A DNA stretch of 64,000 nucleotides, taken from Blasia pusilla. Taxonomy: Eukaryota. The notes beneath the pieces were generated by a model. The model was not told the DNA's origin. It saw only the letters and a list, made by a program, of their open reading frames with translations, and did no database searches. Where the stretch lies: the NCBI GenBank assembly GCA_050084515.1, contig CM114271.1, positions 11,408,001-11,472,000 on the forward strand, written 5' to 3'. Position 1 is the first letter of the stretch, and each line of letters opens with the position of its first letter. Made by a program: the position numbers and the translations under genes. Positions 11,400-46,934 of the stretch are shown piece by piece.

Positions 11400-14100
11400 G
11401 AATAGTGCATCTTGCCATCACATCCAATATTCTCGGCGCTGACTGCTATACGTAGACATAATTACTAGGATGGAATCATCGAATCCTTGATCGATAGCCT
11501 CCTCCACGCATAGTCACGTACATAAGAGTATCGCGATGCTTAGCGATAGCCAGGTTCTCAAACGCCATAAGCATGACTCTCTGAAAGAGCTAAGACCGCT
11601 AAGAACATGCTCATACCCATACGTCTGGATCGATGAGGTCAAGTACCTCAACCACATCTCATCGAATCAACGCCAGTAACTCTGGCTCTCTCCCATAGAG
11701 CAAGAAATACGGTGAAAATGATGCCAAGGATGCCTTCTGACTAAAGCGGTAACTCATCGCTAACCACCACAATTGTACTGTAGTCCATACTTGCGCAATC
11801 CTCTCTTCACCGTCTGCACAACTCTCTCTGCCAAACCATCTGCCTTCAGATGATCTCGAGAAGTCATACAATTATCTATCAGTGCCTAATCACACAAGGC
11901 CTGAAAGTCACATCTAAACTCAGTACCCTGGTCTGTCAACACCACTGCTGGTGTGCCAAAATGACTAAGCACTCTATCAAGAAATGCATAAGCCGCTCCC
12001 TCACTCGACCTATCTGGCAACGCTACCAACCCAATCCACTTGGAGAAGTGCTCCACCATGATCAACACGTACTGACTATGGCGTCCCGTCAATGGTAAAG
12101 GCCGTGCAAAGTATAAACTCCAGAGATACCCTAATCCCATGATCGGTAAAGGATACAAGTGTGGTGCTAGAGCATTGAATGATACCCGCACCCTATCACA
12201 TACACTGCATCTAGGTACAAATTGCTGAACATCAGTTTGCATACCACGCCACCAATACTGAATCTCAATCAAGCTATAAGTACGCTGGACTCCAAAATGC
12301 CCTAACTCCCTGTGAGCTTGTCTCACAACTTGTGCTCGCTGCGAAAGATGCGGCACCCTCCGCACTTGTCCATCCTCCCAAACTCGAAGCACATGCGTCC
12401 CCTCCCACCTGAACCTCCTGGCTTGCTGTAGGACTCGATCCCGCTCTCTAGCACCCACCATGCTCGCTAAGACACCAGTGCGTAGGTACTCCAAGACCAT
12501 CTCATCATCGTGGATATCTCCAATCCCTGTTAACTCCTCACTAGCATCTAGATATGAGGACTCACCATCCAACCTCCCTCTTGGAGTGGATGCCTCATGC
12601 TAACCTAACATAGCCAACAAAGACAAATAGGTAGATGCGTGCCAACTTGACACCATCTCCTCATCACTCTCACCATGCCACCGCGCTCCAGTCGCATTGC
12701 TCTGGATCGTGCATGGGTTACGGCTCAACCCGTCCGCATCCTAGTTCAGATGTCATGGGCGATGGACAACTTGAAAATCATACTCCTGCAATAGGAATGA
12801 TCATCTGGCAAGCTTCCCTGTAAGCATGTTAGACTCCATCAACCATCTAAGTGGTTGATGATCAGTGATGAGCGTGAAAGGGTTCGTGAACAAATAATAT
12901 CTGAAACGTGTCACTTTCCACACTCCAGCTAAGTACTCCCCCTCATAGGAACTGTACTTTGCCTCCACAGTGTTGTTCAAGCGGCTCACATACTCCACTA
13001 CGAACTCCTTCCCCTCATCATCTCTGTGAGTGAGCACTGCTCCTAACCCCAACATACTCCAGTCCGTATGTAACTTGAACGGACGACCATGCATACGTCT
13101 CCTCAAAATGGGTGAGGATTTCAACCTATCCTTGAGCTCTTGAAATGCTCGCTCCTAATCATCACCCCAAAACCACTCCTGGTCCAACCTAGTCAGCAAA
13201 GTCAGTGCCTTTGCAATCGCACTAAAGCCCTTCACGTACCGTCGATAGTAGTTCGCCAATCCCATGAAAGCTCGAACTCGACTCACATCTGTAGGGTGGG
13301 GAATGCGCGCTATGGCCTCCACCTTTGTCTGCTGAACTCCAATACCCCATGGATAAATGGCGTGTCCAAGGTACTCGACCTTGTCATGGAAGAACCTGCA
13401 CTTGCCAGGATGTAGCTTCATCCCATATAACTGCAATCGTCAAAACATCTCCTCTAGATGTCTCTCATGCTCCTCAATCGTGGCACTGAAGACGATAATG
13501 TCATCGACGTTAAATCTTGCATAATCCAAACCAGCCAAAATCCTATCCATAACTCGATGAAAACCCGCAGGGGCGTTCTTCAACCCAAATGGTAAGAATC
13601 GCCACTAGTACAAACTATCCTTCCCGAAAGGATCTATCCCCCAAAATGTTGTCTTCTCCCTATCCTCCACTCAGATGGGCAATTGATGATAGCCAGCACA
13701 GAGATCCAAACAACTAATGATCCTTCCATGCCCTACTACATCAGAGATCTCCTCAGGAGTAGGCATAGCATAGCGATTGGCCTTCGTATGCTGATTGATA
13801 GGACGGTAATCCCCACACATCCACCTATTGGTCCACTGGCCATGCATGTCCTTCTTTGCTGGCATAATTGTGGCAAATGCATACTCTCTAAGCAATCTCT
13901 CCACCAGTCCAGCGTCAGCCAAGTCTCGACTCCTCTGAATCAAGGCTCGCTCCATGTCAGAATACTTGTAGGATTGTTGGAAGATAGGAGTATCACTATC
14001 CAACTTGATTCAAATACCTGGACCCTTCAGCATACCCAAGTCGTGCATACTATATGCAAAACAGTCCTTGAATCTCCACAAGAATTGCAACACTCATCTT
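11400..14100 (-). pseudogene. Ty3/gypsy RT - RNase H - integrase (frameshifted, with stops)
   Basis: ORF fragments 13671-14003, 13155-13436, 12801-13124, 11886-12572 and 11659-11871 carry canonical Ty3 pol motifs. Confidence 0.93.
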
Positions 14101-14282
14101 CTCTCCGCTCCTATCAACCTAGGACCAATCATCGGCTCCCAAGTCTCTCTCATGACCTCTAGAGAAGAGGAGAGTGGTGGTTGCTAGCTAGCAACCTCTG
14201 GAGCAGCAACATACGCTCCCAACTCAGACACCAACTCTCTAGGCACTCCACTATGTCTTGCATCAGCGAGATGAACTCCCAT

Positions 14283-15430
14283 CTATCTGTGCTCTCGTGA
14301 CATATCCCATGAAGTCCATGGATGCCTCTCCATCACCATCGCGCCCCTAGCCAGTGTCTCACCCGTCCCGATAGACGCTATGCCGCAAAAAGGACGTAAT
14401 GTCACAGACACCTCTCGCATCCGTCGTCGCTCAGCCAAACCAAGACTAAAAATCCAAGTAAGATAGTTCAAGTCCATAGCCTGACCCAATAGATGTCTAC
14501 GCGATGCCTCTCCCATCATAGGCACCATAGAGAACCCAATAGCTCGCTCACGCTCATTGGCATTGGGCTCCACTAGTGTACATGCCTACTCATCCCATAT
14601 CATGCCTCCCTGACAAAAAGCATGAGATGATGGAAAACTCACCAACATAGGCAATATTGCCAGCCGCAGGCCCATCCGATTGGCCACTGCCAACGGTGGT
14701 ACATAATCACCAGTAACAACCTGAGATCGCCGCTTTGGATCCAAGATCGCATCCACTATAAGTAGTGATGGTATCTGGACTCCATCATAAGCCCGCCTTA
14801 GCAACTCGGATGGTAAAAGGTTCGTCCACCATAATCGTGGATAGTGTGCATGCGATCCAACACTCGCCGCATCCAACATCACCGCCGGTCCTATCCACGA
14901 CCGCACCTGATGTACACTTGCCATCACTCAAGCTCAAGTGTTACTTAACAATGGGACGTTCTCCAAAATGTAGGCTGGAGAACATCGTTGGGTAGTCTGC
15001 AAGTGACGAAGAACTCGTAGCATCTTCCAAAACATGGCTGACCTCGGGTCCTGCAAACCAAGTCCCCGACCCGCCAAAGAATGACCCTGACATGGCCACC
15101 TTGTCACCACCAAGTGTATCGAACCAACCCTATCCAGATGTGGTGCCCCCAACAACGAAATGTTGGTCGGTAATACATGCTGATATCCTCTCACTGTAGA
15201 CATTGGCAATAATTGAGGATATTGTTGGACTAGTCTCGACACATGATGTAATGAGACTCTACGTGTAGTCTCATCTCTCTCAACATACAAGTACTGATGT
15301 ACTTATACTCGGCCTGCATCACTACAACTAATGCTGTAGTAATTCCTCCAAAGAGATCTAGTATACATACACCCTCCTTGGGATACTGCCACACAATCGG
15401 TGTGGTGCCCAAGGGTGTCAACGTCTCCAC
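14283..15430 (-). pseudogene. C5 cytosine DNA methyltransferase domain (DNMT3/DRM-like, unpermuted) inside the pol polyprotein
   Basis: Motif I 'ILDLFGG' (15344-15361), II 'YVERDE', IV 'WPCQG.S.AG' (15087-15098), VI 'YILENV' (~14955), VIII 'PRLWWTNL', IX 'ERERAIGF', X 'LLGQAMD'. Confidence 0.9.
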
Positions 15431-18111: not shown

Positions 18112-18864
18112 GGGGGGCTGGTATTCTGGCAGGAGAGAGGAAGAGAGGAGAGTCTCTCTTCAAAAAAAAGGCACAAAAGGGAAAAAAAACTGAAACTCTC
18201 TTCAAAAAATATGAAGATTATGGAAAATAAGTGAGTAATTTTTTTGGAGATTTTTTTTGAAGAGAGGAAACTTAGTGCAACCCGTCAGAATCCGACGGGT
18301 TGCAATTTTTTGGTTTTTTTTTTTTGGCTTAAGGAAAATTTTTCATTTTTTGGGGTTTTTTCAACACTTGCAACCCGTCGGAGTCCAACGGGTTGCTTTC
18401 TAGGCATCATGGCGACCTGTCAGACTCCGAAAGGTTGCTTTTTGGCCTCAAAAGCAACCCGTCGGAGTCCAACGGGTTGCAAACGTTAAAAAAACCCCAA
18501 AAAATGAAATTTTTTCCTTAACCATTTATAAAAAAACCAAAAAAAGTTGCAACTCGTCGGATTTCTGACGGGTTGAAAAGGTAAAAAAATTTAGAAAAAA
18601 AACAATTTCAAATTTTTGTTTCACCACCAAATTTTTTTGGAAAAAATTTGACTTTTCAACTTGTCAAAACTTTCCTCTCTCCAACCTGTCGGAAACTCTC
18701 TTCAACCTGTCGGAAACTCTCTTCAAACCAAAAGAGCCCTAGGGGTTGCCAATATCTTCCTCTCTCCTCTCTCCTCTCTCCTCTCTTCTCTCTTCTCTCT
18801 TCTCTCTTCTCTCTTCCTCTCTCCTCTCTTCCTCTCTTCTTCTCTTCCTCTCCTCTTACCGCTC
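18112..18864. mobile_element. Non-autonomous 753-bp derivative of the MULE family, inserted in Ty3 gag
   Basis: 11-bp TSD CTCCATCACAC (18101-18111 and 18865-18875). Has both ends of the large element and about five 27-bp palindromes. Removing it restores gag 'LITETQGVMEAQAVQLWY'. Confidence 0.88.
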
Positions 18865-20464: not shown

Positions 20465-23400
20465 TCAAAGTGGTTTGTTTAAAATACTTCGCACTTCTTT
20501 GAGGGACAAAATTGGTTGGTGGATTCCTACTCCTACCTCCGACTCTCTTAAAAATACCAGCAACACATAGTACATGTGCTTATAAGGGAAATACCTTTTG
20601 CCACTTGTCTCTCTTTGGACAAAGTCATCACATGAACATGTGGGAAAGCAACAGATGTGCACCACATACACCCATGTGACACTTGAATTTACAGTGTTGT
20701 TCTTGACCCAATACATCCTTCCTATTCCATTGCCACTCAAGACATCTTTCGTGGCGATGATCTCCATTTTTGCCTCCCGAGCTGATGCAATTCACTTTGC
20801 TCTCTCCACCGTTGGCCTACACATTCTGTTTCTCTTCACCCCCTTCTCTTCTAGACTCAAACAAAAATAATGGATTGAGATCATCCACCTTCTCTGGTTA
20901 CATGTTGACATCAATCTTGGGTTGAATACAAATTCGAAGCTCTTTGTAATGCAAACATGCTCCAAACTTCCCCCATCTACGAGTCTGAAACCGACACTTG
21001 TAAGATTGTCCACTTCGTCTTGAGTGCAGTTCGTACCCGCGTCGATGGGCCAAATCGTGGGGATATTCCCCGGAGCTCCAATGGCAGCCGGATAAGACTT
21101 CTAGAAAGCGCAAGATTCATTTGGGCAGAAGAAGTACTTCAATTGATCCCCGGTCCTCGTGAAACGATCAAAGGTTTTGAGTCCCCAAAACCCAGGCAGT
21201 GGTCGTCCAGTCCTTGTACATTTCTTATTTAGGAAAGTATCGCATGCTCTCCTAATGCCATCAGATTCTGCCCTGCAGGTGGGTCCACGTCCTGGGTTGC
21301 TCCGAGATATATGCCACCGTTTTAGGTTGCAATCCACCTCCACTACCGGAATCCCATATTTTTGAACCACTCCAATGACAGGAAGTTGCGAACTTCCAGC
21401 AACGGAGGGCTTTTGAAATTAGACATTCACTGATTTTGGAGAAGGGTCTCCATCACGGATTTGGGACGGGTCCGGGGTCCCCGAATACCTGGGTGGCATA
21501 ATTTCCTCATCCAAACCAATCACCGGATTTGTTCCTCGATGCTGCCTCTTCACCTGCTTGAAGTCAAGATACTTATCTGGTCTCCACGAGTCTTGCTTGG
21601 ACTCCTCTACCACCATCTGTATGGGATGTCTTGAAACCCACCCATGAATATCCCCACCAATGTGTACGTCTTGCTCAAGGGGAGTTCTAGCTACGCATCC
21701 ATTGAAGGCTTCCACATAGAGTTTTTCATCACCAGATCTCACAGCCGCCCTGACATAGAGCTCGTAGATCGACGACCCCCTTCCTTTTGTTATGCCTTTT
21801 GTGAGGAAGATATGGGATGCTGCAGACTGTAGCATTGCTCTTGCGTGGTCTTGTTGGCATGCCTCCACAAGTGAAATTCGTTGGCATGCTTGTGACGACC
21901 TCTAGGAAGAATGAACACTTTTTGCTCCACTTGTGTTGGGGCAGAGGGCATTTTCATTCCCAGCAACGACGGCAATGTTAGAAGGGAACGAAAATAACTC
22001 AGGAGTCAAAGAAATAAGCTACCTGTCGGAACCAGACGGGTTGCAAGGCCAAGGAATCCCATGAACAACTCTTCGACCCGTCGGGTCCCGACGTGTTGCA
22101 ACCCTAAACCCACCTACTGCAACCCGTCGGATTCAGACGGGTTGCAAGAACCTGTGGCCACTCTGGAAGATCCAAGTGCAAGTCATCCGAAATCCATCCG
22201 GGTCGAACTATTTGCAGGCCTTGTATACATGCAACTTGCATACTTGTCTACAGGTTGCACCAAAATTCTGGATGCAACCCGTCGGTTTCCGTCGGGTTGC
22301 ACACTCGGGCAACCCTTTGCATCTGACAACTTCCTTGGTTTCTTCGGTTTGAAATCCCTATAGTTCCCATGCTTCTCAACTTGAGCTACAACTTTACAAA
22401 CAATTCTCAACGTGAGCTTGACAAGAAAAAATAGTGAACTCACATGCCGCATGAAGTTTCCCCATTGTCTCATACGTACAGTCCACCAACTCAACCAAGA
22501 GCACAACTCTTTGTACTTCCCCTCAATCGCATGCTTCCTCCACCACCCATGAAGTTCTTCTTGGCATTCCATGGCATGTTTCAAGGTTTTGCTGTTCTTG
22601 CAACGTTGGAGTAGAGTGACATGCTCTGTCCTGTTATTCTCCTTGATGCAAGATTTGGTGTACCGGGTCACAGACTGTTGCCAATGGAAAGCATCTGACC
22701 TTTCCCTCTCCGGTTGAACCTCTCCACCCCAGAACACTTCCCAGATAGCAATCCACCCAGGTTGTGCATTTTCCGCTATGAACCCATAAATTTCTGGAGG
22801 TGGCCTTTTGTTTTCCTTCACCACCTCCAATAAGGGTAACCAGCACATCTTCAAATTGCCAACGTCTTCTGCCTTTACTTCACAGACAAATATAGTTTTG
22901 AGTCCCTTCTCCACATGGTCATAAACGTGAGCACCCATTGTCAACCATCCGTTCAAAGACTCAGAGCAAATATCAAAGCTTACCCAGTGCCAGTAAAGAT
23001 CTTCCCCTTCCCTCATTCGATCTATAAGATCGAGGCCACTCGACAGACCTGTGGTTGACATTTTGAAGACATAGGCCCTGGATCCCTCGCCTCCTTGGCC
23101 CATCAACTGCCATCTTTGAATGAATGGAAATCTAGAGTTGGCCTTGATTCTGGCGATGGCATCCATTTCGGCCGTCTTTCCATCTAGAACCCGTATTTGA
23201 TGCAGCAAATTCCCGAAGCACTCAAGATCAGCGAGAAATGCGAGATTTTCCCAGAGTTGTTTCTCCTCAGCCGCCGTGATCTTGCCCTGTCTAGGGATTC
23301 CAAGCAATTGTTCACAAATTTGTGATGCTGTTGTGAGCTTGATCACTCCGGGTTTTGAACCCGGAGAGCTTCTGTAGACCTTGGCAACTTTCTTCGCCAC

Positions 23401-24450
23401 ATCCTCCTTGATGTGTCTGTGAATTGCATCGGTCACAGAATGAGAGTGGGAGCCAACATGAACTGCCAGCCTTGTGTACTCTGACGTGGAGCCCAAGTCG
23501 TGGACAATGAAAAATATGTATGGAGGACACGCTCCAACGTAGAAGGGCAATGCCTGACAATGAGGACATCGATGGCCTCCCGGCGGTATGGTGGCACCGA
23601 CTCGTATGGAGTTTTGCATTCTTGGGGGAATTGCGATGTATTGACTCGCCCGTTGCGCCTGGATACGAGCATGCTGGACTTCTACACTCCAAGGCTCCAA
23701 TGCATTGGCGGCGGAGACAATCCAAGGACCATCGGAATTGAAGCACTAGTCCGTTGAAGCCTGCACCATCGATGACAATCAAACTTTCATCCATACCCTT
23801 CAGCGCCCTCCATCTTTCTTTTGAGCAAGAGCAGCAAGTGGAGGCAACTCAAAAATGCAATTACCATCGTGACGTGGGCGGCGGCAAATGTCGACAAGAA
23901 TGTGCTTGAACATTTTCAAGGCTAGAGACGAAAGCAAACTATTGCCTGATACTCGCAAGAGGAACGAGTAGGCGGACAGAGGGCCCAGTTGGTGTCCGAC
24001 AGATCCACTGAGGTTGATAATATCCGGAATCTCTTCAGGAAGAACAACATTATTACGAGCGTGTGAAGTTGGAGTCGAAGCCGGATCTACTGAGCTGGGA
24101 GTTGCAAACGTAGAGCTCGAAGCACTAGGAAATTCTCGACCGTCTTCTTGGGAAACAGATGAATTGAGGGGCAAGCCGTAAACTCTGTATTGACCATTTG
24201 TTAGAGGTAGGAGATTCCATACTTTACGGTCTACATTCATTGGATGGACTGTCTCACCTATTATGTCCTCCGTACCGTCCATCCTAATATCCTTGGATAA
24301 AAAGATGGTTCCAATTTGGAGAAGAAATCGAACAGAGAGAAAATTTTCATCCACTGCTATGAAAGACTTAAGAGCTTGCGGTCGAACAATTTTTGATTGA
24401 GGAAGGGCCGCTAGATGACTGCCACAAGTGAGCTTCATATAATTATCCAT
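20465..24450 (-). pseudogene. MULE-type transposase (GCM/WRKY-like Zn domain, DDE core, SWIM); frameshifted; one intron ~22443-21970
   Basis: Zn region 'RRQCIGALECRSPAC...CPHCQ...C...VHVGSHSH'. Core 'WVSFDIC', 'GF(I/M)A(E/D)NAQ', and 'DAFHWQQ' (MULE C/DxxH motif). SWIM 'PTCSCDDF...PYKHMYYV'. TATA at 24502-24508. Confidence 0.82.
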
Positions 24451-24599
24451 TCCTAGAAATTTCCAACGGGAGGAGAGTGAGAATGAGAATGAGAATTTTT
24501 AATTTATAGTGAATAGGAAATCAGATTCTCTTGACATAATTTTACTGACAAGATGAAGTTTGGTAGGTGAAATTGTCTGACACAATGGATTCAATTCTG

Positions 24600-25495
24600 T
24601 TGCAACCTGTCGAAGTCAAGTGGGTTAGAGGATTTGGGAAGCAGAGACGTGGGTTGCGAAGCACACATCATTTTGTTGGAACCCGTCGGAGTCCGTTGGG
24701 TTGGAACCCCCTTCTTGCCGACCGAAGATCTTTTGAGGTGATTTTGCTAGCATCAAACACAAGATATCGCTTGTTTTTGCGGGATTGTCCAACTCAGGGT
24801 ATATTTTGTGACCCGTCGGATTGCAATGGGTTTCCTCGGAACAATACCTTGTCACATTGTTTCCCAAGGGATAACCTGTCGATAATCGACGGGTTGCCCT
24901 GGTAACTCAACTATTAACCCAAGCTAAGCGAAGCCTGCAACCTGTCGGCTTCGGACGGGTTGCATGCTTCTGCCTTACCTTGAAACGCAAACATTATCAC
25001 AGATGGCAACCCGTCCCTCTCCGACGAGTTGCTCGGATACCGCGCCTTCTTGCCCAAAGACGGCGGAGGCGCGCAACCCGTCGGCATCAGACGGGTTGCC
25101 CAATTATCTCATAGTGTAACACTTACATGAAGGAAGCGTGCAAACCGTCTGTTTCCGACGAGTTCCGCGGATGCCGCACTCTCTTGCCCAAAGACGGCGA
25201 GGCGTGCAACCCGTCGCCCTCCCACGGGTTGCACAAGGGCCTCGCCTTGTTTTGCTTACATGAAGGAAGCATGCAACCTGTCGGCCTCTGACAATTTGCG
25301 TGGGAAGCCCGCATTGTTATCCCTTGACGAGGGAAGTGTGCAACCCAACGGTCTTCGACGGGTTGCGCGGGTACCTCCCGTTCTTGTCCAAAGACTGCGG
25401 AGGAGCGCAACCTGTCGGTCTCCGACGGGTTGCCACGAGGACGGATGCCTTGAACCCTCGGGAAGCATGCAACCCGTGGAAGCCGTTGGGTTGTT
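24600..25495. repeat. Array of ~13 copies of the 27-bp palindrome GCAACCCGTCGGA-N-TCCGACGGGTTGC between the two divergent genes
   Basis: Copies at about 24936, 25007, 25073, 25139, 25205, 25272, 25340, 25407 and 25468 (period ~66 bp), plus more upstream. Confidence 0.9.
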
Positions 25496-25583
25496 GTTTT
25501 TCACGTCTAGACTTCCGTAACGGCTGGCACATCGACTTCGGAAGGACGATGCGACCCAACGGTCAGCCCAACAGCTAGAAAAG

Positions 25584-25591
25584 TATAAATA
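25584..25591 (+). promoter_or_regulatory. TATA box of the ParB-MTase-like gene
   Basis: TATAAATA upstream of the ORF, conserved in inverted copy 2 (~47184-47191). Confidence 0.55.
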
Positions 25592-25693
25592 GGGGAGAAA
25601 TCGCTCATTTCTGGTTTCTCACTTCGCGATCTCTATTGCTCTCTCGCGCAGCAGCTGACCAGATACCAAGGGGCGCTTCACACGGCGACTCAT

Positions 25694-25830
25694 CGCGAGA
25701 CGATACAAGCGAACGATTGCGAGACGATACGAGCGAACAATCGCAAGACGATTCGAGCGAACGATCGCGAGACGGTTCGAGCGAACGATCGCGAGACGGT
25801 TCGAACGAACGATCACGAGATGATTCGAGC
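25694..25830. repeat. 24-bp tandem repeat (~5.5 units, GCGAGACGGTTCGAGCGAACGATC) in the putative 5' UTR
   Basis: Directly visible; fewer units in copy 2 (~47005-47070). Confidence 0.85.
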
Positions 25831-25918
25831 TACCCATGAAGGCGACTCATCTCGACATCAGCAAGGCGACTGATCAAGCGATTCATCGTGGACATAGGTG
25901 GAGGCATTTTTGGGAAAA

Positions 25919-28900
25919 ATGACAAGGAAAAAATCTCAAGCAAACAAGTCTGGGAGCTTCACTCCCAAGTCCATGAGGACTCCTGCGTCACCATCTCCAG
26001 GGCCTCGTTCGGCCAATGAGATAAGGCAGCAAGAAATCGAGGAGCGGGAAAGGGAAGCGGAGATGCACAACCAGGAGCTTCTTGCAAAACGTGTACAGGA
26101 GGCGCTCGATAAACAGAGTGCAGAGGCTGAGGCGTCGCAGGCCTTGAAGAAAAGGATCGCCGACGAAAAGCGTTTGAACGCGTCGGTGAGGAGAGCAGAA
26201 TTGGCTAAAGAGAGGAGGGAGAAAGAAATAGCCATTGAAGAAAGCCCTGCCTGTCCAACCAAAAGTGTTGAGATGCGGGAAATGTCCCCGATGAAGTCCG
26301 GGGACACAATCAATAAAGCGGAAACGGCCGAAGTTCAAATCATGGACGATGAGGTCATGAGGGCCGCCAGCGTGGAGATGGTGGACATCGCCGAAGAAGC
26401 AGAAGAGCGGTCATCCTCGTCTCTAAGCCCGGCGGAAGAAATCAACCTCTATCGGATTGACGAGTTTCCAGTGGACTTGCCAGCTGCTCTCTCAGAGCAG
26501 TTGGCTGGTCAAGAAACCGACTCAATCTTCGAGCGGGTAAGAGAGGATCTGTGTTTTTTGAATTATGTGAAGGCCCATCTTGCAATTCATTGGCAATTCA
26601 GTGTAGCTTACTGATCTTGTCCCCATTGTGACAGGTGGTAAAGCAGATGGCACTGATGGAGGGCCACAACGCCCCAATAATTCCACTCTGCCGATTGCGG
26701 ACAATGGAGTACGTCCGTATGAAATTCAGTCTGATGAGGATATTGCGAAGCTCAAACAATCGGCGGCGACAGCATCCTACATCGACAGATTCCCTCTGTT
26801 CTATCTTCACCCTTACGATAACCATGGAACCCAAGCGCTCGTTACGGATGAGGACTTGGAATTGCTCAACACATTCTGGAGGATGAGAGATCAGGAATTC
26901 AGAAGGCAAGTAGAGGGAACGGAATTCAGTTGGATGAGAAATCTGCATTTCTTCATCTCGGATGGAAATCACAGGTTCATGGCGTGGAAAAAGTTTGCAG
27001 AGGAGCGCCCAAACTCCTTGGAGGCACATTTTTGCGTGAAGGCAGTGGTGCTTTATCCATACCCTCATCACATGGCGACGGTGGAGATGGCCATGCATGC
27101 CATGAACACATAAGTTTCTTCTTGTTGCAAACCGTCGGACTCCGACAAGTTGTTTGAGTCACCACTGTTTTTGGGATGTTTTTGGCTGAACGCAACTCGT
27201 CGGAGTCCGACGAGTTGCTCTATTGATCAATGGATTAGGATGTTTTTGGTCGAAAGCAACTCGTCGGAGTCCGACGAGTTGTTCGACTGACCATAGGACT
27301 CGACAGGCCGCATTCTTTGGATGTATTTTGAAGAAAGAAACTCGTCGGAGTCCGACGAGTTGCTCGAATCGCCGCATTTTTTGGATGTTTTTTGAAGAAA
27401 GCAACTCGTCGGACTCCGATGAGTTGTTCGACTGACCACAGGTATAGTATGTTTTTGGCCCAAAGCAACTCGTCGAAGTCCGACAAGTTGCTCGACCGGC
27501 CGCATTCTTTGGATGTATTTTGAAGAAAGCAACTCGTCGGACTCCGACGAGTTGCTCGACTCGCCGCATTTTTTGGATGTTTTTTGAAGAAAGCAACTGG
27601 TCGGACTCCGACGGGTTGCTTGACTTGAAGCTTTTTTGGAGGTTTTTTGATGTTTTTGGCCGAAAGCAACTCGTTGGAGTCCGACACGTTGCATTCAGAA
27701 GTTGGAAGCTGCATTTTTCGCGTCAAATTGCAGCTTACATTGAAATTGCGCAACCTGTCGGACTCTAACGGGTTGCTAAGTTCACTTTTGATACGGACTA
27801 TTTGACAACCCGTCGGAGTCCGACGTGTTGAAACCAGGCAATCACAAATCCGAATGTAATCCGTCGGACTCCGATGGGTTGTATAATTTAGCTCGTTGCT
27901 AGAATCCGACCTTGAGCTGTGAAGACCTGTCGAAGTCCGACGGGTTGCACGAACCCATGTACCTTACAAAATTTCTTATATTGAGTTTGGATGTGCAGGA
28001 TTGTATCGGAGGGGAATGTCACCCACCACTGGATCCAGGATTGCGATCAAGTGAAGAAAGTGCTAACAACGCACCCGGCAGAGTACAAGGGGTTCTTGGG
28101 CGACGCCCTGGTAAATGAGATGTTGGCAAAGGGTGCACAAATAAAAAACAATACTTGGGCAAATAAATTTATTTCCCAAGATGCAGCCATCACAATCCTT
28201 TGCTGGTCGAAGATACAGGCCCCCAAGAAGAGCGCTGCATTGGAGCTAGAGCGGAGGGAGAAAGTATCTGTGTCTGAGCGTGCAAAATTCATCCAAGCTG
28301 CAGTATCTGCAGCTACAAAGTACACGGCAAGCAAGATGCAGCGCTACATCGCCATTCTCAACCCCGAACTTGGTCTGGATTTTTACAAGGAGCTGAAGGC
28401 GATAATCAAGCGCTAGCGGAAAAGGGATGAAGATCTGCAAGGTCGGATTGGAGAGAAAGTGTCTCTCGATTGCGTGCATCGATTTGCCTTGTCTGGAATA
28501 AGCGAATTTAGGAGAATCCGACTGATGAAAATCAGTATCGAGGGCACAGAGGCCCAAAAGAAGGCGGCACACCATCCTCCAGGTGTCTTTGATCCAGTGA
28601 TCTCCCACTGGCTCTACAATGGTCGTTCTGGGACGCGTTGCCGCTTATCAAGAAGTCCATGCTAGACAGTCTCCAAGCGGAGCTAAAAAGAATAGAGCCC
28701 ATTCCGGAGGAAGCAAACCTGGAGAGTGCTGTAGATTTCGAACTTTGGCTCGATGACATCCGGGACAAGCCCATCAAAAACCCAGGTTTCAAGACGATGT
28801 TCAAGGATTGCATCCTCCCTCAGGCAGACCTTGATGAAGAAATCGAGGGGAAAATAGGGATTTTGCAAAGAAGAAGCGAGATCTTCAGGAGCAGGCGGCC

Positions 28901-30797
28901 GATGCAGTTCGACTAAGAGCTGCCCAACATATGGCGTTCAGGTACCTCGTCCATTATAAGAATGCAGATACCTGGGGAAAAATACCGGGAGCCTGCAAAT
29001 TGTGGGCTTCTCCGCCTGATGGAGAGACATTCTCCATGTACGACACGGAGATGGCTCAGCGCATGTCCGATTGGGAGGTGGAGAATTGCCCGATTTGGCT
29101 AGACTTCAATGACCCTGAGGACATTACCAAGAAAGATTTACGCGTGCTTTATGATGTAGTGGCCGCAGGACGGAACGACATCCCTAATTTTGTGCAGCCT
29201 GAAGACTTTTTCGAAGGAGATGCGGAAGAGCAAGCCCTCAAGATAGCGGAGTTGGCTTCCAAGGTCCACATAGCCAAAGACAAATCTACAACGGGTCTCA
29301 AAGGCAAGGCGAGGGGATCAAAGAATTCCAAGGCAGAGTCCTCCCAAAGAGAGGCTGAAGATTCAAGGCCAGAGCTGGAATCGTCCGGGCGAGCGGGGAG
29401 AGAGGGTCGGACCAGGTCCTCTGTGAAAAAAACCCCACCAGAGTCTGAGGTCATAGAGACCCCAACAAGCCGACCGTAGACTCGGGAGAAGCGGAAGCAA
29501 GAGGCGCCAGGGTTGTCCCAAGGAGAATACAGTCCATCATCCTTGGGAAGACATAGAGAAACAACAACCCGGACAAGCGTCCTCCTTCAGTTCACGAATT
29601 TACTGGATGAGCTTAAAAGTTTCAGTTCTCAAGCGTCGACACCTACCATCAACAAATTGACAACGCTAGGACGGAAGCTTCAATGAAACGGGCACACTCC
29701 TTGGACGGTCAATGGAGTGGTCGAAGAGGTGGCGGTGGATCTATTGATCGCTGATTTTCCCTCAAGGTTGCGATTGTGGGACGAGAATCCGTCGAACATG
29801 GCCCAGACTAGAATGTTCCCCTTTCTTATGACCAGATCGCGCTCCTGTTTTCCTTTGCAGACGCTTATCTGAGTACAAGGGATGCTTCTTAGTTTTTACT
29901 AGAGGGAGCGAGGATGAGCTTTTCAACCTCCAGTGCGTCAAGAGGTCGCTGAAGTGGAGGACGGCGCAATCGTAGATCATCAAGAACGAGTACCCACTCC
30001 GATCCGCGACGAGTCAAATTCGGGTAAGGCTCTATTTCTGTCTCCAGATTGTATTTCTATGATGTGTTGTTTTTGTCCGTGAGCAACCCGTCGCCTTCCA
30101 ACGGGTTGGTCATGGACAAAAACAACCAGTCGGACTCCGACAAGTTGCTCCAATGTTAGTATTATAAAGAAGTTCTCTTGAGTTAAGCGAAGTTCTTTGG
30201 TGACGTGTTGCACATTATGTCACCATACTGAGAGTAGACCAGTGGCCAAGTTGCTGACATTGTTTCCAATGTGCTTATTTACAGATGGACCACTCCTATG
30301 TTTATTGCTTCGTTCGGCCCGAGCACAACTTCCAGGTGTTTAAGATCCAGGATCATGTGGATCCATGCTCCGATGGGTATAGCTTAGATAGTTTATACAA
30401 TTCCCCCCCGGGAATTTTCATGCAAGATGGTACCCCACTACCTGGAGGAAGGGAAAAGTTGCTAGCCCTGATGCAAACGCTCATCGAGCTCTGCTCAAGG
30501 CCGGGTGACTTGGTGTTCGACTTAGTGGGCCTTTCAAGGGCGAGTATCAAAGGCGTTTGGCAGAGTGGCAAGAACATTCTCTGCCTCGAGGGAAGGCAGG
30601 AACTGTTTGACCTTTGCAAGGAGGCAAAGGCACATTACGACATGCAAGTTGAGGCGTACAACTCTCCACCGAAGTCGAGAGCTCCGGTTCCAAACCCACA
30701 ATTGGTAGTGACACCATCGTCACTTCCAACGATTCCGAAAATCGGGAGGGCAAGGCCGAAAGTAATTTTGCAAGAGCTCTCGGACGATGATGAGTGA
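25919..30797 (+). pseudogene. Transposon accessory gene: coiled coil + ParB/Srx-like domain + C-terminal beta-class amino-methyltransferase-like domain (~1200 aa). Exons ~25919-26536, 26635-27109, 27999-30023, 30285-30797
   Basis: ParB-like 'IPLCRL..EYVR(E)IQSDEDIAKLKQS...FPLFYL...FFISDGNHRFMAW' (DGNHR at 26961-26975). MTase-like motif IV 'VDLLIAD(F/L)PS' (29735-29764) and 'EKLLALMQTLIELCSRPGDLVFDLVGLS.ASI...SGKNILCLEGRQELFDLCK'. Contains stops and frameshifts; the intron 2 donor is GT>AT here but intact in copy 2. Confidence 0.75.
27125..27950. repeat. Array of ~13 copies of the 27-bp palindrome filling intron 2 of the ParB-MTase-like gene
   Basis: Variant GCAACTCGTCGGA(G/C)TCCGACGAGTTGC, mostly every ~63-66 bp. 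Confidence 0.9.
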
Positions 30798-32994
30798 GTT
30801 CAAAGAAGTCAAGGACCCAGCTTGACTACAGCGTTTGGAGTAGGGATTTATTTGATGATGAGGCAAAAGATTTCATAGAATAGATCAAAAGTACAGTTCC
30901 AAGCTTCTTTCGGATGTAATAAAGGACAATATTTTTTCGAACGATGGTGGTGTTTCTAAAAGTTTGCTGAATATCTTTTATGTCTTTTCGAATGTGATCA
31001 TCTATGTACTCCGAGGACTTCTATTTTGCAACCTGTCGGATTTCCACCGCTTGCAACTTTTCACTTTTTGACCACTGCACCTTTTTAACCACTTCCAAGC
31101 AACCTGTCGGATTCCGACAGGTTGGCTGCGTGAGTGATCGGACTCTTTCCCTGTTGATCCAACTTAAGAGGTATTCTGGCAGGCTTCTTCACTTTGGCAC
31201 CTTCCCCTAGTATCGTCAAACAAGGCGTAGGCTTCTTCTCTTCTCTCAGACGTATTGGATTCCTACTACCTGTGGGATTGCCATCATGGTATTACCAAGG
31301 ACGGAGCACATATTGATACTGGATGGGTGTCACATTGCAGAGCATACAAGATATACTGCCAAGGAAGGCGGTGGGACTCAAATCAGGTTACATGGGACCA
31401 TTATGGTGTACCTAGGGGGGCGCCAAGGCTCTCGAATTCGCCAATATTTTCGATCCCCGTCTACAATCGGCCAGAGGAGCCACTTGTATCCCAGGACATT
31501 CCTTTTGTACAAGAACCTAGGAGAGTTAGGAGTAAATTTGTAGATGACCAAGCTGAAGAAATCATAGACTAGATCAAATGTATATTTCCGAGGTTCCTTC
31601 AGAGGTAATAAAGGACGAGATTTGTTCAACCGATAATGGTGTTTGTAAAAGTTTGCTGGAAATTTCTTTTGGACTTGTGGATTGTGTTATCTTAGCTACT
31701 CATAATTACAATTTTGCAACCCGTATGATTCCGACAGGTTGCAACTTTTCGCTTTTTGCCCACTGCAACTTTTTAGCCATTTCTAGGCAAGCCATTGGCT
31801 GCTTGAGTGATCGGACTCTTTCCCTGTGAGACCAACTTCTGACACATTGTGGCGGGCTTCTTAACTTTTGGCTCGTTCCCCTACATTCGTCAAACCAGTT
31901 GTAGGCTTCTTTTCTTGTCTAAGATGTGCAGGATTCCTACTACCTATCGGATTGCCATTTCGGATTCCCAACCTGTTGGATTTTCGTGGGTGCAGGGTTG
32001 AAGGGAATCACTTCTCAAAATCTTTCCTTTCTTATGGTGAGCTTGCTTGCAATGGGTGCAAGCCATCTGATTCCGATGTGTTGCAAGAGTTGCAACCTCT
32101 AAAATTCCAATGGATTGCAAGAGTTGCAACCTGTAAAATTTCCGACGGGTTGGGAGGGGTGCAGCTTCTCGGTTTCTCAGATTTAGGATTTGAATGAAGG
32201 GACATTAGTTCCTCTTTACTCCAGACAGCTAACAATCTTTTGGTTCAATTATTGTCTCATATGTTCACATTTCACAAAGTTGGTCTTGAGCAGACACCAC
32301 TCATAACCAACAGAAAGTTGGTTATGAGGCAATTCAGGGGAGGCCATGATGCAGGGAACAATCCCTGCAAAAAGAGATGTTGGCATCGTACCGATGCGCA
32401 TTCGGGTGGTCCTCCAACAAAAATACCCATGGGCACTGCTTATTGTAGACCGAGACAGGCAATGTAAAGAAACTTAGGCCCACATGGAGAGTGATGGAAA
32501 AATGTTTGTAGTGGTCTTATGATGTCTACTTTTTTTTCACCCCCTGGAAAAAGGAGGTTTCTTTAGGCCCGAATGTGGACCACTACCTACTTTCTTCTAA
32601 AGATTTCATGAATTTGAAAGCAAACAAAAATTTGAAATATATCAAAAAGTTTTGAAGAGAGGAGGCAGATTTGGCCCTTTTTTTTTAAGAGAGACTCTCC
32701 TATCTTCCTCTCTTCCTCTCCTCTCTTACTCTCTCCTACCAGAATACCAGCCCCCCCCAAGTCCTTGCGCCCGCCACCAAGCTGGCCTGCTGGCGCTAGC
32801 TTAGGGTTTAAGGTTTAGGGCGTGTGAAGCGTTGAACTGGATCATCACCATCTTGCCAAGTCCTTGCGCCTTCAACGCCTCTCCTCCTCCACTCACACCT
32901 TCAACACCTCTCTTGCCTCGAAGCCTCGAGAATACCCATGATTCACCCGCCTCACCTCTTGCTCACTTCTTCGCTGCGCCAAACTCACATGTGA

Positions 32995-42077: not shown

Positions 42078-45000
42078 TCACTTGTCATCGTCGAGAGCTC
42101 TTGCAAAATCACTTTCGACCTTGCCCTCCCGATTTTGGGAATCGTTGGAAGTGACGATGGAGTCATTACCAAGGGTGGCTCTGGGAACCGAGCTCTCGGC
42201 CGGTGGAGAGTTGTACGCCTAACGAGCCTTTCAGATTCTCGCCTTTGCCTCCTTGCAAAGGTCAAGCAGATTCGCCTTCCTCGAGGCAAAGAATGTTCTC
42301 GCCACTCGCTAGGCGCCTCGATACTCGCCCGAAAGGCCCACTAAGTCAAACACCAAGTCACCCGGCCTTGAGCAGAGCTTGATGAGCGTTTGTATCGTGG
42401 TCGGCGACTTTTCCTTCCTCCCGAAGCTGGTCTTGTCTTGCATGTAAATTCCGGGGAATTGTACAAACTATCTAAGCTGTACCCATCTGAGCATGGATCC
42501 ACAGGATCCTGGATCTTGAACACTTAGAAATTGTGCTCGGGCCGAACGAAGCAGTACACATAGGAGTGGTTCATCTGTAAATCACCACGAAACAATGTCA
42601 GAAACTAAAGAAGTCGCCTTGAGAAGATTTTCAATAACTGACTTTGGATCAACCTGTCGGAGTCCGACGGGTTGTTTTGTCCCGGACCCACCCGTCGGAA
42701 CCCGACTGGTTGTAGTTGCTTTTGGGTTTTCCAAGTTGATTTTGGTTTTCGGATGCAACCCGTCGGAAGGCAACGGGTTGCTGGCCTAGACCAGCCCATG
42801 CTCGCCTAAGAGCAACCCGTCTGATAGCAACCCGTCGCTATTAGACAGGTTGCATCCAAAAACCAAAATCAAATGCAACCCGTCCGGTTCCGACGGGTTG
42901 CAGGTACACCGCGGTTTTCCCTCTATATGTGGGAAAGATGCAACCCGTCGGAAACCGACGGGTTGCTCTCAGCCGAGCATGGGCTGCTCTAAGCCAACAA
43001 CCCGTCGCCTTCCGACGGGTTGCTCACGGACAAAAAAAACCCAGACTGACTCTCATTCTACACATCATTATAAGATAATTGAAATTATTGTATAGGAATT
43101 GAGCCTTACCCGAATCTGACTCGTTGCGGATCGGAGTGGGTACTCGTTTTTTATGATCCATGATTGTGCCGTCCTCCACTTTAGCGACCTCTTGACGCAT
43201 TGGAGGTTGAAGAGCTCGTCCTCGCTCCCTCTAGTCAACACCAAGAAGCAAAGCACCTGTCACTCAGATAAGCGTCTGCAAAGGAGAACAAAAGTGCAAT
43301 CTGGTCATAAGTGAGCGGCAGATTCCACTAAGGTACCTCGTACGCCGGATTTTTGCCCCAAAGTCACAACCCCGAGGGCAGATCGGCGATCAAGAGATCC
43401 ACCGCAACCTCTTCCACCACTCCATTCACCGTCCAGGCAGCGGGCCCGTTTCGTTGGAGCTTCCGTCCCAGCGTTGTCAATTTTTCGATGGCAGTTGTCG
43501 ACGCTTGAGAATCGAAGTTGTTCACTCATCCAAGAAAGAGGTGAATCGAGGGAGGACGCTTGTCCGGGTCGTTGTTTGTCTATGTCTTCCCAAGGATGAT
43601 GGGCTGTATTCTCCTTGGGACAACCCGGGCACCTCTCGCTTCCGCTTCTCCCTAGTCTGGGGATGGCTTGTCGGGGTTTCTATGACCTCGGATTCTTGTG
43701 GCGTTTTCTTCGCCGAGGACCTGGTCCGACCCTCTCTCCCTGCTCGTCCGGACGATTCCGCCTCTGGCCTCTCATCTTCAGGCTCTCTTTGGGAAGTCTC
43801 GGCCTCTGAATTTTTCCCTCCCCTCGCCTTGCCTTTGAGACCATTTGTGGATTTGTCTTTGGCTGTCCGGACCTTGGAAGCCAACTCAACTGCCTCGTGG
43901 GCTGCGCTTTCAGCATCTCCTCCGAAGAAGTCTTTAGGCCGACGAAATTGGGGATGTCGTCTTGTCCCGAGGCCATCTTTGATCATGAAGGACTCGTAAG
44001 TCCTTATCCGTGATGTCTTGTGGTCGTTGAAGTCGAGCCAAATGGGGCAATTCTCCACCTCCCAATCCGACATGTGTTGACCCATCTCCACGTCGTACAT
44101 GGAGAATGTCTCGCATCCGGCGAAGCCCACAATTTCAAGGTCGCCGGTAATTTTCCCCACGCACTGCGTTCTTACATCGACGAGGTACCTAAATACCATC
44201 CGTTGGGCGCTTTTAGTCGAACATTATCGGCCGTCTACTCCTATAGATCTTGCTTCTTCTTCGCTTGATCCCGTTTGTTACCCTCTACTTCTTCGTCAAG
44301 CTCGCCGAGGGAGGACGCAAACCTTGAACATGGTCTTGAATCCTGGGTTCTTGGTTGGCTTGTCCCGGATGTCGCCGAGCCAAACCTCGTAATCTCCGAA
44401 CTTTCAAGGTTTGCTTCGGCGGAATGGGCTCTAATCTTCCGAGCCCGCTGCGAGACCATCCAAAGACGGACTTCCCGATTACCCGCAACGCGCCCCTAAC
44501 GACCATTCGCGTAGCCAATGCGAGATCATCGGATCGGACACACCGGAGGATGGTGTGCCGCCCTCTTCCGGGCCTCGAGCCCTCTAGACTGATTTTCATC
44601 AGTCGTATCCTCCTGAACTCGCTAATCCCGGATAACGCAAAACGATGCACGCGATCCAGCGACACTTTCTCCCCAATCCGACCATGCGGATCTTCATCCC
44701 TCTTCCGCTGACGCTTGATAATCGCCTTGAGCTCCTTGTAGAACTCCGGACCAAGTTTGGGGTTGAGAATGCTGATGTATCGCTGCATCTTGCTTGTCGT
44801 GTATTTCGTTGCAGCAGATACAACAGCTTGGATGAATTTGGCACGCGCGCTCAGACGCAGATACCTTCTCCCTCCGCTCCAGCTCCGGGCTGGCGCTTTT
44901 CTTGCCTGTATCTTCGACCAGCAAAGGATGGTTACGATCGCATCTTGAGAAATAAACTTGTTTGCCCAAGTTTTCTTCTTAATCTGAGCACCCTTTGCAA

Positions 45001-46934
45001 GCATCGATTGACAAGGGCACGCCCAAGAACCCTCAGACTCTCCCAAAAGGTGCGTCGTAAGCACCTTCCTCACCCCATCGCAGTCCTGGATCCAATGGTG
45101 GGTGACATTCCCCTCCGATACAATCCCGCACATCCAAACTCAACCCGTCAGGAAATTACATGGGTTCACGCAACCCGCCGGACTCGACGGGTCGTCACTT
45201 CGGGTTGGATTCTAGCAACAAGCTAAATGATGCAACCCGTCGGAGTCCGACGGGTTGCATTCAGATTTGCTAATGCCAGGTAAGCAACTCGTCGGACTCC
45301 GACGGGTTGCTGGACTGCACGCTTTTTCGGATGTTTTTTTAAGATTGCAACTCGTCGGACTCACGAAGGTCGGATCGCACGCTTTTTCGGATGTTTTTTT
45401 AAGATTGCAACTCGTCGGACTCCGACGACTTGTATGATTGAACATAGATTTAACTAGTTGTTGGCCCAAAGCAAACCATCGGAGTCCGACGGGTTGCTCG
45501 ATAGGCCGCCTTGTGAGGTTGTTTCTTTAAGAATGCAACTCGTCGGACTCCGACAAGTTGCTCGAGTGACTGCAGGTTTAGAAGGTTTTTCCCCAAAGCA
45601 ACCCGTCGGAGTCCGACGGGTTGCTTGCCTCGAAGCTATTTTTCCCCATATCAACCCGTCGGAGTCCGACGGGTTGATTTCGGCCAAAAATAGTTTCGAG
45701 GCAAGCAACCCGTCGGAGTCCGACGGGTTGCTTTGGACCAAAAACTAGTTAAATCTATGTTCCATCAAACAAGTCGTCGGAGTCCGACGAGTGTCAATCT
45801 TAAAAAAACATCCGGAAAACCGTGTTGTCTAGCAACCCGTCGGAGTCCGACGAGTTGCTTTCTGCCTAAACAAACCTAACCCATTCATCAATCGAGCAAC
45901 TCGTCGGACTCCGACGAGTTGCGAAAGTGTTAAAGATACTTACGTGTTCATGGCATGCATTGCCATCTCCACCTTCGCCATGTGATGAGGGTATGGGTGA
46001 AGGACCACTGCCTTCACGCAGAAATGTGACTCCAATGAGTTGGGGCGCTCCTCCGCAAACTTGGTCCACGCCATGAACCTGTGATTTCCATCCTAGATGA
46101 AGAAATGCGATTCCTCATCCGGCTGAATTTCTGTGCCCTCAACTTGCCCTCAAGTCCTGGTCTCGCATCCTCCGAATGTGTCAAGATTTTCCAAGTCCTC
46201 CTCAAGTAACGAGCTTGGGTTCCATGCTCGTCGTAAGGCTGAACATAGAAGGGAGGAAAAGCGTCACGTGGGATCTTTGTCGCCGCCGATTGTTTTAGCT
46301 TTGCGATGTCCTCGTCTTGATCAGATTTCGCGGACGTATTCCATTGTCCTTAATCGGTAGAGTGGAATCTCGGGCGTTGTGGCCCTCCATGAGTGCCATC
46401 TGCTTTACCACCTGTCAGAACCGGGACAAGAGGAATAAGCTACACTGAAATCCCAATGAATTGCAATTCACATAATTAAAAAAACCCAGAACCTCTCTTA
46501 CCCGCTGGAAAATGGAGTCGGTTTCTTGACCAGCTAACTTGTCTGAGACAAGGGCTGGCAAATCGACTGGGAACTCGTCGATCCAATAGAGGTCGATGTC
46601 CTCTGCCGGGCTTGGAGTCGAGAATGACCGCTCTGCGGCTTCTTCCGCCATGTCCACCATCTCCACGCTGGCGGTCCTCATGACCTCGTCGTCATCGATT
46701 TGAATTGGTGTTGATTCCACTATGTTGATTGTGTCCCCGGACTTCGTGGGGGACATTTCCCGCATCTCAACACTTGCGGTTGGACGGGCTGGGCTATCGT
46801 CAATGGCTATCGCTTTTTCCCGCCTCGCTTTAGCCAATTCTGCCCTCCTCACCGACGCGTCTAGACTCTTCTTTTCTCTCTTTTCGTCGGCGATCCTTTT
46901 CTTCAAGGCCTTTGCCGGAAATGCCTCCACCTAT
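42078..46934 (-). pseudogene. ParB/Srx + amino-MTase-like gene, copy 2 (many indels, N-terminal deletion)
   Basis: DGNHR retained (~46077-46091); 'VDLLIADLPSG' (~43370-43403); 'PGDLVFDLVGLSG' (~42330-42366). Confidence 0.75.

Follow-up and report, generated by a model that had tools for sequence, protein, structure and literature searches.

A 64,000-nucleotide stretch of the genome of Blasia pusilla (GenBank assembly GCA_050084515.1, contig CM114271.1, positions 11,408,001 to 11,472,000 of the forward strand), referred to here in its entirety as the window, carries two inverted copies of a gene in which a ParB/Srx-like part is followed by a domain that resembles bacterial amino-methyltransferases and has altered catalytic and cofactor motifs. 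This domain (METHYLTRANSFERASE) and the gene that encodes it are the subject of the present analysis. The window is eukaryotic DNA in which reading frames are split and fragments of retroelements and of a Helitron occur.

Two inverted copies of a split gene

The features of the two gene copies, numbered from the first nucleotide of the window, are the following.

25898..26611, + strand: open frame with many charged residues, likely to be 5' coding sequence (omega = 0.39 in comparison with copy 2)
26652..27109, + strand: ParB/Srx-like exon of copy 1, from the translation (omega = 0.30 against copy 2)
27110..27998, + strand: intron 1, after the ParB exon, with 13 palindromes and an RNA joint from 27109 to 27999
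27999..29686, + strand: middle region with no known domain, two frame changes and a TAG at 28414
29687..30023, + strand: N-half exon of the methyltransferase-like domain (motifs IV to VIII) in copy 1, broken by frameshifts and TAGs
29735..29764, + strand: motif IV-like VDLLIADFPS of copy 1, from translation and DNA
30024..30284, + strand: predicted GT..AG intron of 261 nt, phase 0, with canonical splice sites in both copies
30285..30797, + strand: C-half exon of copy 1 and its tail, ending in TGA
30450-30539, + strand: motif X-I block REKLLALMQTLIELCSRPGDLVFDLVGLSR (REK…GDLVFDLVGLS) of copy 1, from the translation
30588-30590, + strand: motif II glutamate (LCLE) of copy 1
42080..46930, - strand: copy 2, the same gene inverted, with several stops and frameshifts
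46078-46092, - strand: DGNHR of copy 2
43373-43402, - strand: motif IV of copy 2, VDLLIADLPSGL
Ending at 42327, - strand: motif I block of copy 2, GDLVFDLVGLSG

The DNA of the two copies is about 81% identical (27806-30039 compared with 45309-43094, and 30249-31681 compared with 42606-41190), and within the domain motif IV comes first and the X-I block after it. The motif strings, their coordinates and the existence of copy 2, as reported in a first-pass annotation made from the sequence alone, agreed with the translation and the DNA. The X-I block was also located where that annotation had placed it; its ending, given there as GLSG, is the reading of copy 2 and is GLSR in copy 1.

To evaluate expression, we used three RNA-seq runs with the same species label (X3, X4, and X5), in which 314, 490, and 320 reads matched at a likeness of at least 90%. 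Three of these 1,124 reads were at least 99% alike and 1,121 were less than 99% alike, and the reads therefore derive from other copies of the family or from another strain. Related copies are transcribed and spliced. Seven reads (2 + 3 + 2 across the three runs) join 27109 to 27999, which confirms intron 1 and places the ParB exon in frame with the middle region. The middle region, which spans about 560 codons between the ParB-like and methyltransferase-like parts, has omega values of 0.08-0.39 against copy 2, compared with 1.0-1.9 in wrong-frame controls, and was aligned by phmmer, weakly but collinearly, with N-terminal portions of the moss proteins described below. The in-frame joint and the coding signal that continues after it suggest that the ParB-like and methyltransferase-like parts belonged to one product, with no full-length transcript among the reads. 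The predicted intron at 30024..30284 splits the methyltransferase-like domain and holds one palindrome (at 30124), and the alignment with moss protein continues across its junction. No RNA joint was listed for this intron in the three runs, in which read depth there was about 1, and none was seen at 25898..26611.

Three further observations were made in the RNA data. Just past the TGA, a joint that skips 488 bases (30806-31295) was present in 13, 24, and 3 reads and represents either an intron of the 3' untranslated region or further coding exons in intact relatives. At 26685-26717, 29-44 reads per run matched a stretch of only 33 bases, with flanks that are unrelated to the window and in perfect agreement with each other; these reads seem to stem from an abundant transcript of unrelated origin that matches only briefly. 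Lastly, in RNA over the palindrome array of intron 1, one joint jumps forward from 27283 to 27633 and another leads back from 27582 to 27252, with a short insertion at each. These rearranged joins (27252-27633) therefore indicate arrays of different length in expressed relatives.

The ParB/Srx-like exon encodes the DGNHR motif HFFISDGNHRFMAW at 26961-26975, after a hydrophobic strand, and the same motif is present in copy 2; ParB/Srx domains are characterized by a motif of the D-G-x-H-R type. Several results weigh against the assignment of this exon. Its sole profile match was to DUF1015 (E = 6.9e-4), which we take to be a member of the ParB clan, at 19.1 bits relative to a cut-off of 25.8. 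The piece had no match to PF02195 and none in PHROGs, NCBIfam, or PADLOC, its phmmer matches among PDB sequences were at chance level (E of at least 0.49), and a tblastn search of phages returned no match. A single-sequence AlphaFold2 model had a pLDDT of 39.2 and was unusable. A search of longer proteins with the piece likewise found none. PF02195 detected only two weak loci in Escherichia coli K-12, and these were not used.

Both copies in the window are pseudogenes (dead, INDEPENDENTLY), and each was inactivated separately. The TAG stops of copy 1 at 28414, 29809, and 29973 correspond to CAG, TGG, and TGG, respectively, in copy 2. Copy 1 is also frameshifted at 29801-02 and at 29875-76, and its intron-1 donor at 27110 is AT, compared with GT in copy 2. 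In copy 2, the intron-1 acceptor is GG in place of AG, and there are other stops and several frameshifts that are dense past GLSG. We considered a GT..AG 'intron' at 29767-29860 whose removal would eliminate breaks of copy 1. It was ruled out because the skipped stretch is homologous to moss coding sequence, all five of the differences between the copies in YDQIALLFSFADAYLS are synonymous, and copy 2 still meets a stop. Stop-codon reassignment was considered as well, given that all three stops of copy 1 are TAG, and was ruled out by the TGG, TGG, and CAG of copy 2, which identify the stops as ordinary transitions. The first-pass annotation had missed the pseudogene status of both copies, the 261-nt intron in the domain, and an algal precedent that is in print and is discussed below.

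Homology to beta-class amino-methyltransferases

On the strength of sequence comparisons, the domain is a remote homologue of beta-class N6A/N4C amino-methyltransferases that falls below Pfam-level membership. A complete HMMER search of 1.84 billion representatives, with the C-terminal exon as query, returned only three proteins at E <= 0.001, none of which is named as algal. One is an unnamed fragment of 147 amino acids (P0001), another is a hypothetical protein of 758 amino acids from the moss Ceratodon purpureus (P0003), and the third (P0002; 2776 amino acids, repetitive, E = 7.2e-5) was set aside as a probable low-complexity match. P0003 has paralogues on other chromosomes (P0004-P0006), such that the four moss paralogues are found on four different chromosomes. 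For alignment of the family, the broken window copies were translated through with an X at each break and were combined with P0001 and P0003-P0006; the read-through copies and the moss proteins aligned cleanly and collinearly over about 250 residues.

Comparison of this alignment with that of 16 YhdJ orthologues in hhalign yielded a collinear match (P = 4.8e-5, score 40.4), with scores of 12.5-15.3 for the reversed template, 15.2 in the comparison that scored 40.4, and of at most 20.5 for 20 column-shuffled templates. Each half of the domain also aligned by itself, the N-half at motif IV (P = 0.0024, score 28.0, template positions 32-99) and the C-half at template positions 198-257 (P = 4e-6). 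A second comparison, with 20 diverse prokaryotic enzymes of the PF01555 type (19 of which Pfam confirms, at 101-187 bits), yielded a probability of 97.8% and an E-value of 7e-13 over 207 collinear columns. The N-half alone scored 28.5 at motif IV, compared with at most 16.4 in 20 shuffles, and the N-half and C-half occupied template positions 52-174 and 238-290, respectively. In these alignments, VDLLIADFPS of copy 1 is matched to vDLIFADPPYNI of YhdJ and to the SPPY/SPPF block of the 20 enzymes. The permuted order in which motifs IV to VIII precede X and I to III is borne out by the collinearity of the alignments, and the beta-class order and amino-methyltransferase homology that the first-pass annotation had put forward thus stand, as is also indicated by the profile searches described next.

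A profile built from seven family sequences had three matches among PDB sequences, all of the PF01555 type. These comprise DpnA, at E = 0.007 and 0.009, and 8s9m, a chain titled DNA cytosine-N4 methyltransferase, at E = 1.2. The C-half exon of copy 1 matched DNA-methyltransferase families in PHROGs (E = 0.0014 and 0.0017) and MTase_II in PADLOC (E = 0.018), and the matches in these two databases were to methyltransferase families only. In a feature search of the ESM Atlas, PF01555 was present in 18 of the 30 nearest clusters. The domain shares its permuted order with prokaryotic and phage beta-class enzymes (YhdJ, DpnA, CcrM), to which it is collinear over about 200 residues, but differs from them in the absence of (D/S)PP(Y/F) and GxG and in the presence of introns and of the middle region of about 560 codons. 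The association with ParB echoes the phage ParB-terminase loci whose methyltransferases are discussed in PMC4738411. None of the 23 prokaryotic relatives that were scanned has a ParB domain. Separately, among prokaryotic enzymes with a block of the LTDEGDLVFD type (L004-L050), motif IV was mostly SPPY or SPPF, the serine form, in a sample that was chosen by pattern and has no firm bearing on origin.

Marchantia MpDN4MT1 and bdelloid N4CMT are likewise eukaryotic genes derived from prokaryotic PF01555-type enzymes. The first-pass annotation had suggested a link between the domain and these N4-methylcytosine (4mC) enzymes, which our results do not support. The match to 8s9m was weaker than that to DpnA, and the TSPPY motif that MpDN4MT1 is reported to carry (10.1101/2021.02.12.428880) is lacking in this family.

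Several results weigh against homology at the level claimed here. The Pfam gathering cut-off of PF01555 is 26.7 bits, and none of the sequences reached it in a scan of 21 window pieces and the relatives: copy 1 scored 13.1 bits (E = 0.091), copy 2 15.1 bits (E = 0.022), P0003 15.7 bits, and P0001, the best relative, 22.0 bits. For comparison, all 23 prokaryotic relatives scored 64.7-187 bits. The PF01555 search proposed with the first-pass annotation thus stayed below the cut-off, at 13-15 bits for the window copies. The 20 enzymes of the second hhalign template had been selected with a pattern derived from the motif I block of this very family; the E-values for the full length and the C-half are therefore inflated, and the N-half score is the only independent one. 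An AlphaFold2 model of P0003 from a 7-row alignment was unusable (mean pLDDT 27.9). P0003 alone had no phmmer match in the PDB.

These results bear on the possibility that short motifs resemble those of methyltransferases by chance, in a region that is non-coding or of unrelated fold. Such an explanation would account for single-sequence profile matches that all lie under curated thresholds and for AlphaFold2 models that are unusable for both parts of the protein. However, it is difficult to reconcile with collinear alignment over 192-220 columns at scores above every reversed or shuffled control, with the separate alignment of the two halves to the correct parts of the templates, and with the recovery of the same enzyme class from Pfam, PHROGs, PADLOC, PDB sequences, and Atlas features. 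Moreover, an excess of synonymous differences is confined to the coding frame and is absent in wrong frames. We therefore regard a chance match as very improbable.

Rewritten motifs and selection on the domain

The canonical form of motif IV is (D/S)-P-P-(Y/F/W/H), and the templates have SPPY, SPPF, DPPY, or DPPF. None of the family sequences that cover it conforms to it. Motif IV is DFPS in copy 1, DLPS in copy 2, and DAPE in all four moss paralogues, or D-x-P-(S/E)-G overall; copy 1 retains the aspartate and the second proline and has lost the first proline and the aromatic residue, and the first proline and the aromatic fourth residue are absent from all six sequences that cover the motif. 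Motif I, canonically D-P-F-x-G-S-G, is DLVGLS(R/G) in the window and DWSA(N/S)TG in the moss relatives, with DLSASTS as a further form. Its aspartate (D616) is kept in seven of seven sequences, and the first glycine of GxG has become L, N, or S. Motif X has GSRE(K) in place of HPxxKP. An acidic residue is kept at motif II in the six sequences that cover it (LCLE, (I/L)ALE, and FGME, compared with GIE/AAE in the template); copy 2 is frameshifted there. Eight positions are invariant in all seven rows of the alignment: D585, T587, G591, E594, Q601, G611, V614, and D616.

The core of the domain, taken as the 107 codons (segments ii-iv) that begin at a conserved tryptophan and run through the motif VIII region, shows 28 synonymous and 5 non-synonymous differences between the two copies, with omega of 0.017-0.05. 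Wrong-frame controls had omega of 1.2-3.0, indicating that the protein was under strong purifying selection while the lineages diverged. Together with the occurrence of DAPE and DWSA(N/S)TG in moss, these low values support the first-pass view that the altered motifs are a trait of the family and not a product of decay. Two results count against extending this argument to the motifs themselves. The motif IV segment has an omega of 0.29, equal to its wrong-frame control, and the C-half has an omega of 0.7-1.1, partly due to the frameshift in copy 2. Selection is therefore demonstrated for the core and not for the motifs.

The rewritten motifs raise the question of whether intact members of the family are enzymes. 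Because motif IV lacks its aromatic residue and its first proline in six of six covering sequences, motif X is rewritten, and the cofactor-loop glycine varies, we slightly favor a domain that would act as a non-catalytic module for DNA binding or base flipping over one that is active in N6-methyladenine (6mA) or 4mC formation. A comparable case is METTL14, an inactive methyltransferase paralogue with active-site disruptions according to section 8 of PMC4738411. METTL14 has a conserved permuted methyltransferase fold, as is probable for the present domain, and like that domain it has a disrupted strand-4 motif and is kept under selection; however, it belongs to a different family and works with an active paralogue, and this element shows no such partner.

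The alternative is that intact members are active DNA (or RNA) amino-methyltransferases with an unusual D-x-P-(S/E)-G loop that would place 6mA or 4mC on palindromes centered on GA(G/C)TC. In favor of this reading are the strong purifying selection on the core (omega 0.017-0.05) and four residues that are kept wherever a member covers the position: the aspartate and the second proline of motif IV, the aspartate of motif I, and the glutamate of motif II. Indeed, the retained motif I aspartate and motif II glutamate and the constrained core fit an active enzyme equally well, which counts against the non-catalytic reading. YhdJ of E. coli, annotated as a DNA adenine methyltransferase, has GSF and not GSG in motif I, and the motif I loop therefore tolerates change. 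Furthermore, algal accessory proteins that combine ParB and methyltransferase domains are predicted to be enzymes in the published description (PMC12477816). Activity is nevertheless the less probable reading, given that motif IV lacks an aromatic residue at its fourth position in all six covering sequences, and we know of no active amino-methyltransferase without it. The rewriting of motif X and the variation of the first cofactor-loop glycine among L, N, and S within the family are further points against activity, the latter suggesting relaxed constraint.

Transposon context, precedents, and proposed role

The elements that frame the gene are as follows.

18113..18190, + strand: terminal-repeat-like sequence GGGGGCTGGTATTCTGG of about 80 bp, the first of four
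22186..23745, - strand: candidate MULE-like transposase (P0007), an open frame of 520 codons that faces away from the + strand gene
32670-32756, - strand: second match to the terminal-repeat-like sequence
From 39168, + strand: third match
From 40189, + strand: fourth match

The four matches to the terminal sequence compare with none expected by chance, and the putative inverted termini at 18113 and 32756 have about 80 bp in common. The arm at 20818-32755 is duplicated inversely at 51845-39168, and a third, partial copy of the transposase lies at 53371-55472. The nearest ESM Atlas clusters of the transposase candidate carry the MULE family PF10551 (score 0.95), with nine of the ten best named matches in one family or clan. 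RNA over the transposase-like gene is on the strand opposite to that of the ParB-methyltransferase gene, and both strands match the gene orientations. A joint in this gene that skips 1184 bases (21146-22331, - strand; 11, 12, and 2 reads) is a probable intron.

The window also contains a 27-bp palindrome with the consensus GCAACCCGTCGGA-S-TCCGACGGGTTGC at 53 sites, compared with none expected by chance; 52 of these belong to the two element copies. Thirteen in copy 1 (27129-27946, mostly 64 bp apart) and 11 in copy 2 are located in the intron that follows the ParB exon. CcrM and M.HinfI, both PF01555 enzymes, act at GANTC. Of the 53 palindrome centers, 29 read GA(G/C)TC and 34 read GANTC, counts that do not constitute independent evidence because the search pattern forced the center. 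A self-complementary stretch of 300 bp at 18278-18575, just inside the terminal repeat at 18113, contains three copies of the palindrome.

Collectively, the transposase-like gene on the opposite strand, the shared terminal repeats, the several copies, and the RNA of paralogues support the inference that the gene is transposon-borne, as the first-pass annotation had proposed. Points against this reading are that P0007 had no Pfam match at E <= 5, such that its MULE assignment is drawn from Atlas features alone, and that no matching target-site duplication, 9-11 bp long in this superfamily, was found at 18113/32756, where the flanks differ (catcacacg compared with ccaagtcct).

A host or domesticated gene that was duplicated locally in a 12-kb palindrome, and that has no accessory role in a transposon, would also explain why the copies form one large inverted duplication (20818-32755 and 51845-39168), why a clean target-site duplication was not found, and why annotation treats the moss relatives as ordinary genes for hypothetical proteins. 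We consider this improbable, since the terminal sequence is present four times, a third partial copy of the transposase region exists, and 1,121 of 1,124 RNA reads are less than 99% alike and thus come from other genome copies or a different strain. In addition, divergence mostly under purifying selection followed by separate decay is the pattern of separate insertions from active lineages, and the four moss paralogues are on four different chromosomes.

Genes of this kind have been described before. According to a report on the brown alga Ectocarpus (PMC12477816), the giant transposon Sola1-1_Ec32 encodes a protein of 1104 amino acids with ParB-like and DNA methyltransferase parts opposite the transposase, and 'similar proteins' are mentioned for transposons of green and red algae. 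As in the Blasia gene, a single protein has both domains and is encoded in a large DNA transposon that has its transposase on the other strand, and the protein is proposed to bind and modify its own element. The comparison is by description. The superfamily is Sola1 in Ectocarpus and MULE-like here, and the Ectocarpus protein is predicted to be an active 4mC/6mA enzyme, whereas here motifs IV, X, and I are rewritten and the copies are dead.

Similarly, according to a preprint on red algal Plavaka elements (10.1101/2025.02.11.637652), the accessory genes PAG2 (PF01555 and SET domains) and PAG3 (ParB-like and 2-oxoglutarate oxygenase domains) lie beside inverted-repeat arrays, with homologous accessory genes in Mutator elements of Chondrus. 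Here too PF01555-type and ParB-like domains are carried by giant DNA transposons, and inverted-repeat arrays lie beside the ParB gene. However, PAG2 and PAG3 are two proteins, each with another enzyme domain, and the Blasia gene probably has one product; the comparison is again by description. PAG2 passes Pfam PF01555, unlike the Blasia family, and Pfam scans of the window pieces gave no SET or oxygenase domain. Transposon proteins with ParB and methyltransferase domains have been recognized only since 2025, from brown and red algae, green algae having been mentioned earlier, and their function is untested. Among the papers listed in full-text literature searches, none was found to describe such a gene in land-plant or moss transposons. 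The kind is therefore already known, and what is new is a divergent lineage with rewritten motifs, moss relatives, and evidence of selection on the lineage.

The explanation that we prefer, with a probability of about 0.6, is that the domain is the C-terminal part of an accessory gene with several exons that belongs to a family of MULE-like DNA transposons and is present in the window as two inverted pseudogene copies, and that the methyltransferase-like part of the protein is more likely a non-catalytic module than an active enzyme. The ancestral protein would have comprised an N-terminal ParB/Srx-like domain with the DGNHR motif, a long middle region with no known domain, and a circularly permuted beta-class domain descended from prokaryotic N6A/N4C DNA methyltransferases (PF01555). 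By analogy to the binding of parS by ParB, the ParB-like domain may bind the element's own palindrome arrays and, once bound, may bring the methyltransferase-like domain to the DNA of the element. Catalytic or not, the protein would likely serve to mark or shield the transposon's own DNA. That the protein binds the palindromes is something we infer entirely, which counts against this account.

In a more speculative extension, to which we assign a low likelihood, intact members would be self-targeting transposon proteins that occur outside of algae. The ParB-like part would act as a clamp on palindrome arrays in introns and the promoter and would bring in a methyltransferase-fold module with a new D-x-P-(S/E)-G loop. 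This module might write an unusual mark at GA(G/C)TC centers or might flip and hold a base without chemistry, and either could protect the element from silencing by the host. The VANDAL anti-silencing proteins that are cited in the preprint on Bostrychia (10.1101/2025.02.11.637652) offer an analogue for such protection.

Several other features of the window were recorded.

2665-3108, + strand: fragment of an EXS-family gene
9462-10103, - strand: fragment of a Helitron helicase-like N-terminal domain (E = 1e-28)
Within 11889-15302, - strand: integrase (PF17921, PF00665) and reverse transcriptase-RNase H (PF17917) pieces of a Ty3/Gypsy-type retroelement
14937-15302, - strand: fragment of a C-5 cytosine DNA methylase (PF00145, E = 3.2e-7)
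59260-60438, + strand: retrotransposon gag with zinc knuckle

The region at 11889-15302 may be a retrotransposon that carries a cytosine methyltransferase.

The two copies in the window, being dead, are themselves of no functional consequence. Their significance lies in the family to which they belong. The class of transposon proteins with ParB-like and methyltransferase-like parts is extended to a MULE-like element for which moss genes are the only relatives detectable at the protein level, and in this lineage every classical catalytic and cofactor motif is rewritten while the core of the domain is under strong purifying selection. The family thus offers a clean test case for distinguishing a protein that methylates its own element from one that merely binds it, with the 53 palindromes as candidate binding sites.

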